From NCBI GenBank assembly GCA_964016885.1, contig OZ024749.1, forward strand, positions 16,802,001 through 16,866,000: a DNA stretch of 64,000 nucleotides, read 5' to 3'. The stretch is from Eledone cirrhosa. Taxonomy: Eukaryota. Made by a program: the position numbers and the translations under genes. Below are positions 19,660 to 62,508 of this stretch, in pieces; position 1 is the stretch's first letter, and each line of letters starts with the position of its first letter. The notes below the pieces were generated by a model. It did no database searches and was not told the origin of the DNA. It saw nothing but the letters and a program-made list of their open reading frames with translations.

Positions 19660-19935
19660 TGAATATGCAGATGATAATTTACCACAAATATTACAGTGAT
19701 ATGGCTTTTCTCCAGTATATATATATGTTTCTATGTAGTTAATGTAGCAATGAAAGAGAATAATTTCTCCCCAGTATCACAGTGGTATGTCTTCTCACTC
19801 ATATAAATGTATTTGTGTTTAATCAATTGACCATTTTGAGATAATGAGATATGACTTTGTTATGGTTTCTCACCTGTATGGGTATATTTGTGTCTACTTA
19901 AACTACTTGAAACGGAGAATCATTTACTACAGATA
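19660..19935 (-). pseudogene. About three decayed C2H2 finger units downstream of the ZNF stop codon
   Basis: Recognisable ggtgagaaaccata and ggagaaaagccatatcactgtaatatttgtggtaaa remnants on the minus strand. Confidence 0.75.
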
Positions 19936-21438
19936 TCAGTGATATGCTTTCTTACATCTATGTATACATCTGTGTTTAGATAAATGACTACTTTCAAAGA
20001 ATGATTTTCCACAGATATCGCAGTGGTATGGCTTATCTCCTTTATGGGTACGTATGTGAGACATTAAGGAACTACTCCAAGAGAATGATTTACCACAGAT
20101 ATCACAATGATATGGCTTGTCTCCTGTATGTATATGTTTGTGTGTAATTAATTGACTACTTTGACAGAATGATTTACCACAGATTTCACAGTGGAATGGC
20201 TTGTCTCCTGTATGTGTACGTTTGTGGGAAGTTAAGTGACCACTTTGAGAGAATGATTTACCGCAGATATCACAGTGATATGGCTTGTCTCCTGTATGGG
20301 TATGTTTGTGAGTAGTTAAGGCACTACTGACAGAGAATGATTTACCACAGATATCACAGTGGTATGGCTTGTCCCCTGTATGTATACGTAAGTGTTTAGT
20401 TAAGGTACTACTTTCAGAGAATGATTTACCACAGATGTCACAGTGATATGGCTTGTCTCCTGTATGGGTACGTTTGTGAGTAGTTAAGGCACTACCATCA
20501 GAGAATGATTTACCACAGATAGCACAGTGATATGGCTTGCCTCCTGTATGTATACGTTTGTGGGTAGTTAAGTGACTACTAACAGAGAATGATTTACCAC
20601 AGATATCACAGTGATATGGCTTCTCTCCTGTATGTATACGTAAGTGTTTAGTTAAGGTACTACTTTCAGAGAATGATTTACCACAGATATCACAGTGATA
20701 TGGCTTCTCACCTGTATGTGTACGTTTATGACTAGTTAAGGCAATACTGACAGAGAATGATTTACCACAGATATCACAATGATATGGCTTGTCTCCTGTA
20801 TGTATACGTTTGTGTTTAGTTAAGGTGGTACTATCAAAGAATGATTTACCACAGATATCACAGTGGTATGGCTTGTCTCCTGTATGTATACGTTTGTGGC
20901 TAGTTAAGGTAGTACTATGAGAGAATGATTTACCACAGATATCACAGTGGTATGGCTTGTCTCCTGTATGGGTACGTAAGTGTTTAGTTAAGGTACCACT
21001 TTGAGAGAATGATTTACCACAGACATTACAGTGGTATGATTTCTCTCCTGTATGGGTACGTTTGTGAGTAGTTAAGGTACTACTATCAGAGAATGATTTA
21101 CCACAGGTATCACAGTGATATGGCTTGTCTCCTGTATGTATACGTTTGTGTCTAGTTAAGGTACTACTATCAGAGAATGATTTACCACAGATATCACAAT
21201 GATATGGTTTGTCTCCTGTATGTGTACATTTGTGGCTAGTTAATGATTTACCACAATATGGCTTCTCTCCTGTATGCATAACTTTGTGAGTAATTAAGGT
21301 ACTACGTTTATTGAATGATTTACCACAGATATCAGAGTGATATGGCTTCTCTTCTCTAACTTTTGTCATTTCACCAGGAATACTTAACACTTTAGATTGT
21401 GTTTCACATTTAATCTTCCCAGTCAACATATTTTCCAT
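19936..21438 (-). CDS. Tandem C2H2 zinc-finger protein (15 intact fingers, 2 degenerate N-terminal fingers), single coding exon
   Basis: 84-bp period; CxxC-x12-H-x3-H with TG(E/D)KPY linkers; 500-aa ORF. Confidence 0.95.
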
Positions 21439-38309: not shown

Positions 38310-38386
38310 ATAAATGCCGGTATGTGTTGTAACAAGGTTTTACTTCTGTGAAGTAAAACCTTGTTACAACACATACCGGCATTTAT
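38310..38386. repeat. Perfect palindrome, 37-bp arms, 3-nt loop
   Basis: ataaatgccggtatgtgttgtaacaaggttttacttc tgt gaagtaaaaccttgttacaacacataccggcatttat. Confidence 0.97.
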
Positions 38387-42489: not shown

Positions 42490-42565
42490 CAGGGTCTCCC
42501 CAAAAATGTATACACACTTCAACTACAGTCTATGTAAGTGTGTATACATTTTTGGGGGACATTGT
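42490..42565. mobile_element. ~76-bp Tc1/mariner-type MITE (second copy 44515-44592, part of an inverted duplication)
   Basis: TA|CAGGGT(C/G)TCCC..AAATGTATACAC terminal inverted repeats, TA flanks. Confidence 0.75.
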
Positions 42566-46003: not shown

Positions 46004-46927
46004 TATTAGTGACTATCAGAATAGTATATCTAGGACTACATTATCTAATGTACAGTATAGTAGTTAGTATTAGTGGTTATCAGACATAGTGTATCTAGGA
46101 CTACATTATCTAATGTACAGTATAGTCTTTAGTATTACTGGCTATCAGACATAGTGTATCTAGGACTACATTATCTAATGTACAGTATAGTAGTTAGTAT
46201 TACTGGCTATCAGACATAGTATATCTAGGACTACATTATCTAATGTACAGTACAGTAGTTAGTATTAGTGGTTATCAGACATAGTATATCTAGGACTACA
46301 TTATCTAATGTACAGTATAGTCTTTAGTATTACTGGCTATCAGACATAGTGTATCTAGGACTACATTATCTAATGTACAGTATAGTAGTTAGTATCAGTG
46401 GCTATCAGACATAGTGTATCTAGGACTACATTATCTAATGTACAGTATAGTAGTTAGTATTAGTGACTATCAGATATAGTGTATCTAGGACTACATTATC
46501 TAATGTACAGTATAGTAGTTAGTATTAGTGACTAGCAGACATAGTGTATCTAGGACTACATTATCTAATGTACAGTAGTTAGTATTAGTGGTTATCAGAC
46601 ATAGTGAATCTAGGACTATATTATCTAATGTACAGTATAGTAGTTAGTATTAGTGGCTATCAGACATAGTGTATCTAGGACTACATTATCTAATGTACAG
46701 TAGTTAGTATTAGTGGTTATCAGACATAGTGAATCTAGGACTATATTATCTAATGTACAGTATAGTAGTTAGTATTAGTGGTTATCAGAAATAGTGTATC
46801 TAGGACTACATTATCTAGTGTACAGTACAGTAGTTAGTATTATTGGCTATCAGTCATAGTGTATCTAGGATACATTATCTAATGTACAGTAGTTAGTATT
46901 AGTGGTTATCAAACATAGTGTATCTAG
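46004..46927. repeat. Minisatellite, ~14.5 copies of a 65-bp (variant 60-bp) unit
   Basis: tattagtggttatcagacatagtgtatctaggactacattatctaatgtacagtatagtagttag. Confidence 0.97.
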
Positions 46928-60733: not shown

Positions 60734-61037
60734 TGTTTGAATTTCTTTTTACTTGAAAAAAGGGGCTCACGAAGGTTTTTTTTTGGTTGGTTATAAATGA
60801 AATTATGGCTGTCACGTGAACAAGTTTTCATTAAATTTTCGTGTCCTTATTTGGAAATCCATTCTGTAGCCTTTTTAGAGAATTTTATGATAAGTGAAAG
60901 ATAATGGTCAAGAGAAAGGGATGGGAGAATTGTTCTGGTTCAGTGAATATGGTTAGTTCGCTGGGGTGTCAGAATTCAGATTTTCTATTGAATAAAGAAA
61001 GTAAAGATATGTATGTTTATTTGTGTGCTTGTGTGTC

Positions 61038-61068
<31 letters not shown>

Positions 61069-61345
61069 TTGAATTTCTTTACTTTAAAAAAAGGTGGCTC
61101 ACGAAGGCTTTTTTTTAATAAACGTGATTTGATTGGTTATAAATGAAATTTTGCTGTCACGTGAACAAGTTTTCATTACATTTTTGCGCCCTTATTTGGA
61201 AATCTATTCTGTAGCCTTTATAGAGAATGTTATGAGAATGGAAAGATAGTGGTCAAGAGAAATGGGATTGGGAGAATTGTTCTGGTTCAGTGAATATGGT
61301 TAGTTCGCTGGGGTGTCAGAGTTCAGATTTTCTATTGAAGTAAAG
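60734..61345. repeat. Two ~330-bp degenerate tandem copies
   Basis: 60734-61010 is similar to 61064-61345. Confidence 0.85.
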
Positions 61346-61358
61346 ATATGTATGTTTA

Positions 61359-61402
<44 letters not shown>

Positions 61403-61666
61403 TATTGGAAGATGATTCTATTAGTAGAAATGGGGGAGGGAGTTGTGTGTGTATATGGGTGTTATGTGTGTGTGTGCGAGTATGTTAAGATGGAGAGAAT
61501 ATATATTTTGTGTGTGTGTATATATGTGTGTAGGAAAGTGGTTCTATTAGTAGAAATGGGGGAGGGGAGTTGTGAGTGTGGGGGTTGTTATGTGTGTGTA
61601 TGGGTGTTATGTGTGTGGGAGTATGGTTAGCATGTTAAGATGAAGAGAATATATATATATATATAT

Positions 61667-61836: not shown

Positions 61837-62508
61837 ACGTTTTGTGTTTATCATATATTTTAATGTATTTAACTGCTCGGAAATGCCCCTTTTCTTGGAG
61901 CTGGATTATTGTAAACGACTGAGAGTTTATTCTCAAAATATAATATAGTATATTGCTCCTTAACTGTAGAGCTGATCTTTAATCCCGCATAAACGGCTGT
62001 TATTTCTAGCACCGGGAATGCGGGACGGCTAATTTGGCCTGGCTACACACGTGTAGTCAGACCTGCTAAATTTTTGAGGTGAAATATACTAATTTTACTG
62101 GGTTCCTGTTGATAAGCACAGAAGATTTGGATATTTCACTTTTTATTTCTATTCCATTTCGATTCTCTTTATTTTTCAATTCACGTACCACCGTTGCGAA
62201 ACGGATTTAGGTTTCGAGGTTCAAATTCATCTACGGAGCAGGTTTGGATTTTGAAATTTAAATTTGTCCAGGAACCATGGCCTTTGCCAATATAAGCTTG
62301 TCTTTATTGACTTATATCGAGACAGACAAATTGTATTCACTTTAATTAGTTTATTTCATTAATAGCTAACTTTGTCTGTTACAATGCAAACACGTTTTGT
62401 GTTTATCATATATTTTAATGTATTTAACTGCTCGGAAATGCCCCTTTTCTTGGAGCTGGATTATTGTAAACGACTGAGAGTTTATTCTCAAAATATAATA
62501 TAGTATAT
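61837..62508 (+). mobile_element. Retrozyme-like ORF-less element: 555-bp unit with 117-bp terminal redundancy
   Basis: 61837-61953 matches 62392-62508; HHR at 62101-62276; ends in (TA)n. Confidence 0.75.
62101..62276 (+). ncRNA. Type I hammerhead, U3-A8 core, 26-bp stem III
   Basis: ggttcctg-TTGATAA-GCA..TGC-GAAA-[62202-62227/62241-62266]-TC-caggaacc. Confidence 0.85.

Follow-up and report, generated by a model that had tools for sequence, protein, structure and literature searches.

A probable hammerhead retrozyme of Eledone cirrhosa with a long, wobble-rich stem III and a strand-specific excess of A-to-G changes

How does a repeated DNA element come to carry a 26-bp hairpin in which ten pairs are G-U wobbles and not one is a mismatch? 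The question is raised by an insertion in a 64,000-nt stretch of the Eledone cirrhosa genome (contig OZ024749.1, positions 16,802,001 to 16,866,000 of the forward strand), the whole of which is called the window here. A preliminary description of the locus had recognised a hammerhead motif and attributed its helix to selection on the RNA strand rather than to a DNA palindrome. It had also proposed that the wobbles could be scars of A-to-I editing fixed by reverse transcription, with C-to-T change as an equally good explanation. The features on which the argument turns are the following, in window coordinates.

61837..62508, + strand: whole insertion, a 5'-truncated 1.2-mer (117-nt partial unit plus 555-nt unit) with a (TA)n end
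61954..62508, + strand: full monomer of family A, 555 nt, found as head-to-tail units in loci L005 and L010
61989..62010, + strand: motif near-unchanged in all subfamilies, as judged by eye in family representatives
62101..62108, + strand: stem I, 5' strand, perfect 8 bp with 62269-62276
62109..62115, + strand: catalytic core UUGAUAA, the U3-A8 variant (C3-G8 in families G and H)
62116..62197, + strand: stem II and its loop; 62116-62118 pairs with 62195-62197 (3 bp) around an AU-rich 76-nt loop
62198..62201, + strand: core GAAA, invariant in the alignment
62202..62227, + strand: stem III, 5' arm, with recurrent A-to-G sites at 62209 (pair 8) and 62217 (pair 16)
62228..62240, + strand: stem III loop, 13 nt
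62241..62266, + strand: stem III, 3' arm, more highly conserved than the 5' arm
62266..62268, + strand: GUC triplet, with the cut predicted by sequence between 62268 and 62269
62269..62276, + strand: stem I, 3' strand, partner of 62101-62108
62427..62508, + strand: 'tail' of 82 nt between two alternative 3' ends, 62426 and 62508

The pairing first described for this copy proved correct in every particular when recomputed: the two arms of stem III pair at 26 of 26 positions, as 13 A-U, three G-C and ten wobble pairs (seven G-U and three U-G), alongside a perfect 8-bp stem I. The fold belongs to one strand. A 201-nt region folds with z=-3.63 as the + strand, none of 200 shuffles being equally good, and with z=-0.52 as the - strand, while stem III alone is worth -22.8 kcal/mol as + RNA, -4.2 as - RNA and -3.1 as + DNA. 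When the arms are compared as inverted DNA, just 16 of the 26 positions are complementary, and this, with folding on the + strand only, rules out the reading of stem III as a DNA palindrome. A scan of the whole window for perfect stems of at least 18 bp, simple sequence left out, returned four stems on the + strand and two on the - strand. These comprise two true DNA palindromes found on both strands (38310-38386 and 42497-42558, perfect over 37 bp and 23 bp), one 18-bp AT/GT-rich stem, and stem III itself.

The motif around this hairpin is a predicted self-cutting type I hammerhead with an unusually long stem III: it has the UUGAUAA core (U3-A8, not CUGAUGA), the GAAA, the GUC triplet and three helices with stem I open. 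Across the eight subfamilies, A to H, into which sampled copies of the repeat were sorted, the cleavage triplet is GUC or GUA, the loop of stem II varies in length from 29 to 77 nt, and most families share a CUG...A sequence flanking stem I. An Rfam search found no hammerhead at the gathering threshold or at E<=10; its models may miss a motif with so long a loop II and stem III. In the window copy, the energy model gives stem II a pairing probability of about 0 and places the hammerhead fold 4.2 kcal/mol above the predicted minimum (1.3-8.2 in 18 copies under a constrained fold), so that cleavage may be slow. The hammerhead proposed at 62101..62276 is backed by its core, its three helices and the covariation described below; the non-canonical sequence of that core, a stem II of 3 bp and the silence of Rfam are qualifications.

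The hammerhead is part of an abundant repeat. The window copy contains a 117-nt direct repeat, 100% identical and spaced 555 nt apart, and the boundaries of the insertion recur in other copies; copies of family A stop at 62426 or 62508, followed by (TA)n. Exact matches to three ribozyme anchors in the 3.0 Gb genome number 868, 313 and 302, with 0 for reversed controls, and the genome therefore holds at least about 1,480 ribozyme copies. Units measure roughly 520-570 bp; five lie consecutively on contig C28, and the window copy itself has one ribozyme. Insertions are truncated at the 5' end, frequently bear an inverted arm and end at one of two fixed 3' points. Of 348 blocks, 252 are flanked by (TA)n left and right, and 343 have it on one side or both. 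Their cleaned arms exceed one unit in 204 of 529 cases and reach at least two units in 17. The repeat is non-coding (longest Met ORF 39 aa; GC 34%), and neither the unit nor the sequence attached to it in the loci examined holds an ORF for reverse transcriptase and GIY-YIG. An autonomous partner, or a pLTR related to the repeat in sequence, was sought among flanking ORFs, shared flanks and 50 of 10,597 GIY-YIG candidate loci, and no partner was found there; the relatives near the 50 loci examined read as separate insertions.

Tandem type I hammerhead units, the non-coding character and the low GC are those of a non-LTR retrozyme, and the repeat is very probably one. Its 5' truncation, partial tandems, inverted arm, tail and (TA)n target are the anatomy of a Penelope-mobilised element. 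In the portions of the literature accessible to us, from which all papers are cited here, metazoan non-LTR retrozymes are likewise non-coding, low in GC, tandem or dispersed, with one type I hammerhead per unit (Cervera and de la Pena 2020, PMC7229834; 10.64898/2026.07.22.740005), and 555 bp falls within the unit range of 51-972 bp given by Li, Clavereau and Pollet 2026 (10.64898/2026.07.22.740005). In contrast to those retrozymes, the repeat described here has a stem III of 25-26 bp where 1-2 bp is usual, and a short stem II with a long and variable loop. Animal type I hammerheads generally have a helix III of 1-2 bp, large ones being described from fungal and protist elements (PMC4209133), and the supplementary alignments of the retrozyme papers could hold similar animal cases. 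The U3-A8 core variant is known from the Cercyon Penelope-like elements of Schistosoma (PMC4209133), and the covariation at U3-A8 in those elements is also found here. For Penelope-like elements, 5' truncation, partial tandems, inverted arms and (TA)n targets have been described (PMC8557442), and an optional tail marks two internal starts of reverse transcription (PMC11167929). All of these recur in the present repeat (PMC4209133, PMC8557442, PMC11167929), which differs in having no reverse transcriptase or GIY-YIG ORF and a tail of about 80-100 nt instead of 30-40. The class of element is already known; what differs is the long stem III and an excess of A-to-G changes that is restricted to the stem and to one strand.

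Is the helix kept for the sake of the RNA? Covariation was examined in 18 subfamily representatives; because the pairing scheme was taken from the window copy and the rows share ancestry, the shuffle controls are lenient. Two-sided changes occur in five of the eight pairs of stem I and in all three of stem II, and the core pair 3-8 covaries, being U-A in 12 of the 18 rows and C-G in six. In stem III, 95.9% of cells are paired; eight pairs are invariant, 14 vary on one side and three of the 26 on both. Stem length is constant over copies at 64-65 nt, families G and H have a fixed one-base bulge, and of 60 stem changes found in just one copy of an insertion, only 24 preserve the pairing. The helix described as mismatch-free is indeed so in the window copy, but this is not a family trait: 31 of 75 family-A insertions share it and none of 245 in the other seven families. 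Because the fold is strand-specific and stems I and II and pair 3-8 covary, we hold with high confidence that the + strand of the retrozyme is under selection for an RNA helix, as the preliminary description had argued. One might instead suppose that stem III has no RNA function and is the remnant of a DNA palindrome or of a MITE-like inverted repeat. Many of these insertions contain inverted duplications, from which the hairpin may have originated, and the energy model finds stem II weak. Nevertheless, this supposition is scarcely credible given folding on a single strand, a hammerhead core with two-sided covariation (stems I and II, pair 3-8) among families about 30% apart, and the fixed length of the stem.

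Where, then, do the ten wobbles come from? In relatives, wobble pairs 2, 9, 10, 15 and 17 alternate with A-U only and pair 20 with A-U or U-U; pairs 18 and 25 alternate with G-C, pair 26 with both G-C and A-U, and pair 3 is mostly U-U. The diverged C3-G8 families G and H served as a tentative outgroup to root the comparison, and on that footing pairs 2, 10 and 15 may be tentatively read as A turned to G, 17 as toggling and 25 as C turned to U, with pair 3 a putative repaired mismatch and pairs 9 and 18 possibly old wobbles. Alternation mostly with A-U leaves C-to-T change without support as an equal explanation, and that alternation together with an unraised C-to-T rate (given below) excludes it as the main source of the wobbles. 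By the same count the ancestral helix was not G-C throughout, a state that the preliminary description had regarded as incompatible with editing: of the ten wobble positions, pairs 18, 25 and 26 are those that alternate with G-C in the comparison above.

Editing is not required for wobbles to be frequent. When the element's own rates outside the stem are applied to three equally fit pair types, the neutral equilibrium of A-U, G-U and G-C is 0.67:0.24:0.09, that is, 24% G-U without editing; with the stem's own A-to-G rate the expected G-U share rises to 41%, and the window copy has 38%. Abundant families carry on average 5.8-8.8 wobbles out of 26. Because an AT-rich stem toggles mainly between A and G in any case, interchange of A-U and G-U is to be expected even in the absence of editing. 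It is likely that the G-U pairs arise because selection preserves the RNA helix as A and G replace one another opposite U's that stay fixed, and unlikely that editing is the main source of the ten in the window copy.

A separate question is whether A-to-G changes are commoner in the stem than elsewhere. From 465 ribozyme anchors we obtained 457 copies of at least 300 nt in 328 insertions, of which 326 were scored; the sample was partly chosen by likeness to the query. A change was taken as private when the four nearest other insertions, each no more than 8% distant in the sequence beyond stem III, shared a different base; anchor columns were excluded. Private A-to-G changes number 32/4376 in stem III (7.3 per 1,000) and 71/27628 outside (2.6 per 1,000), an odds ratio (OR) of 2.9 that keeps its direction in five of five family groups (OR 2.1-5.0). 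A trinucleotide-matched expectation gives 12.7 where 32 are seen, and permutation at the level of sites yields p=0.001, or 0.03 without pair 16. T-to-C is not raised (20/7239 in the stem, 121/38134 outside), C-to-T and G-to-A do not differ between stem and outside, and there is no element-wide strand bias (A-to-G against T-to-C outside the stem, OR 0.8). Of the four transitions that keep a pair, the remaining three are likewise unraised: T-to-C opposite G (6/2274), G-to-A opposite U (17/2205, or 7.7 per 1,000 as against 8.7 outside) and C-to-T opposite G (8/918 as against 107/14769 outside). Since A-to-G alone is elevated among them, relaxed constraint by itself does not predict the pattern. 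Within the stem, the 5' arm has 21/2168 such changes and the 3' arm 11/2208. Paired A's outside stem III also show more A-to-G changes than the rest, 3.3 against 1.9 per 1,000 (p=0.04), a comparison based on single-sequence folds.

The excess is concentrated at particular sites. Sites hit at least twice make up 7 of 58 well-sampled A's in the stem, 7 of 364 outside it and 1 of 93 stem T's. Pair 16 (62217) has changed repeatedly in three family groups, and in family H its G occurs in seven insertions that are scattered on the tree, each closest to non-carriers. A-to-G before GG is found at 10/202 in the stem and 2/667 outside, and such changes being rare outside the stem, general slippage towards a 3' run fails as an explanation. 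Stem A-to-G changes are common to all copies of one insertion in 7 of 15 cases, against 65 of 452 for the comparison set (p=0.004), as would be the case for a change that the template already carried; a source copy missing from the sample would give an identical pattern.

Editing by ADAR offers one cause. In editing of repeat-derived double-stranded RNA, neighbour rules include avoidance of a 5' G, the stronger feature, and preference for a 3' G (PMC9989829). The present changes resemble it in being A-to-G on the RNA strand and confined to a long duplex. A 3' G may be favoured (12/427 against 20/3949), a difference carried by pairs 8 and 16. Unlike that editing, they are inherited differences among genomic copies rather than RNA-DNA differences, do not avoid a 5' G (6/1046 against 26/3330, p=0.68, at low power) and are unclustered, the 32 events being spread over 30 insertions. 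The expected neighbour preference is at most half borne out, on two sites for the 3' G, and several stem A's in favourable context were never hit. An effect suggested by a first pass over 185 insertions was weaker in replication with 143 added insertions (12/2021 against 39/11788, OR 1.8, p=0.08). Changes seen in a single insertion show no excess among these 143 (3/2021 against 20/11788), a filter that also drops true hotspots. Hotspots carry much of the signal: without pairs 3, 8, 11 and 16 the odds ratio is 1.7 (p=0.07). The stem A-to-G rate climbs with overall divergence, from 4.5 to 10.2 per 1,000, and the excess persists in the least diverged third (5.4 against 1.4-2.3 per 1,000). Of the idea that the wobbles are editing scars, then, a stem-specific and strand-specific A-to-G excess stands, while the replication is weaker and half of the ADAR neighbour signature is missing. 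Contigs of four other runs, consulted for RNA evidence, contained small pieces of the element and in no case the complete stem. That editing causes the excess is, in our judgement, an evenly balanced proposition.

Two accounts dispense with editing as the cause. According to the first, the G-U pairs follow neutrally from pairing constraint combined with AT-biased mutation, and the A-to-G excess comes from a few hotspots together with template switching or conversion between sub-lineages in which A and G are both tolerated. The neutral equilibrium is close to the family means, replication was weak with no excess of unique changes in the new set, similar hotspots exist outside the stem (T-to-C 6/85, T-to-A 5/79), and pair 8 switches state 12 times on the ACE tree. 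Yet exchange between sub-lineages should lift G-to-A as much as A-to-G, and G-to-A opposite U shows no such rise; the concentration of repeatedly hit sites among stem A's, compared with A's outside and with stem T's, also argues against it, and we consider this account not very likely. The second holds that wobbles are positively selected, in that variants with G-U in place of A-U would transpose better: they would retain the ribozyme fold, yet their duplex, or the inverted repeat in their DNA, would be less perfect, with less dsRNA sensing, dicing, editing or silencing as the benefit. It would suit the 16/26 match of the arms as DNA, the unfolded antisense strand and the enrichment of template-borne A-to-G changes, and plant G:U hairpin transgenes do escape self-silencing (PMC9263138). 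But a wobble also results from C-to-T opposite G, which shows no increase, and this makes a wobble advantage a lesser rival; moreover, pairs 3, 14 and 18 have turned G-C in some lineages and the number of wobbles varies among the abundant families as given above. Selection for wobbles is accordingly quite improbable.

The explanation that we favour, and regard as moderately probable when taken as a whole, is that the hairpin is stem III of a retrozyme hammerhead maintained by helix selection, with extra A-to-G changes probably contributed by editing of the RNA intermediate. The unit would be transcribed, and tandem copies could be cut to unit length and ligated into circles; with so long a stem III, one unit could fold by itself. 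Any copy that carries a whole ribozyme would have to stem from a template whose cut site was intact, and the great surplus of arms exceeding one unit over dimers would fit a template that is circular. A reverse transcriptase of the Penelope type would probably copy the unit, mobilising it in trans, from two internal start sites, into (TA)n. Since stem III is the best double-stranded RNA of the element, it is the part that ADAR would hit; inosine would be copied as G by the reverse transcriptase, and the resulting G-U tolerated as the helix is kept. A bolder form of this explanation, in which ADAR edits of germ-line RNA, fixed by such an enzyme over repeated rounds, ratcheted the helix from A-U to G-U and about 1,500 copies amount to a dated fossil record of editing in the germ line and of a structure-restricted mutator, we put forward tentatively, as a possibility to which we give somewhat less than even weight.

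If editing is indeed the cause, RNA edits become heritable DNA changes by way of a non-viral retroelement, ADAR must reach the folded RNA intermediate in germ-line cells, and germ-line editing could be read from genome sequence alone. An animal retrozyme with a 25-bp stem III would need no dimer fold, unlike most animal type I hammerheads, and would offer a simple test case for the cutting, circularising and copying of such RNAs. Our literature search, in which subscription journals were thinly covered, returned no report of this element in cephalopods, nor of edits fixed in retrozyme copies or of stem-restricted A-to-G change, and a term search of the accessible text of an Octopus repeat paper (PMC13282606) found no mention of hammerheads, retrozymes or editing.

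Several further observations concern the repeat itself. The 3' arm of stem III contains a 12-nt self-complementary run (62254-62265), which may be a protein-binding or dimerising site. At several loci the inverted arms begin about 10 nt past the predicted cut (equivalent to 62278-62279 in the window), with a weak pooled excess. The 5' ends of arms were considered as a sign of cleavage in vivo and rejected as such: 27 of 529 lie within 14 nt of the cut site against about 14 expected, an adjacent bin contains 28, and no such signal is seen in family H. In two loci (L171:2460-2805 and L178:480-780), 3' fragments of a more diverged relative lie in (TA)n that ends a Penelope-like 3' region. An abundant SINE-like repeat of about 185 nt (L132:3411-3596, L334:1433-1605) sits inside the same conserved retrozyme motif in subfamilies F and H, with an apparent target duplication, and adjoins the retrozyme in several other loci; its position in the motif may reflect chance or a common target preference.

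Hammerhead repeats abound in this genome. The flanks of the loci examined contain many unrelated, minimal type I hammerheads whose 6-nt stem III is palindromic (L009:906, L023:2081, L058:284, L060:2505, L105:4611, L134:3716 and others), and a further tandem family, with 457-nt spacing, a canonical core and a 7-bp stem III, is represented at L039:125 and L039:582. Elsewhere in the window, an array of about 16 units (19915-21243) has an 84-bp period, which points to a possible C2H2 zinc-finger gene of the minus strand; a satellite with a 65-bp unit, repeated 14.5 times, occupies 46004-46927, and a 345-bp partial tandem lies at 60782-61403.
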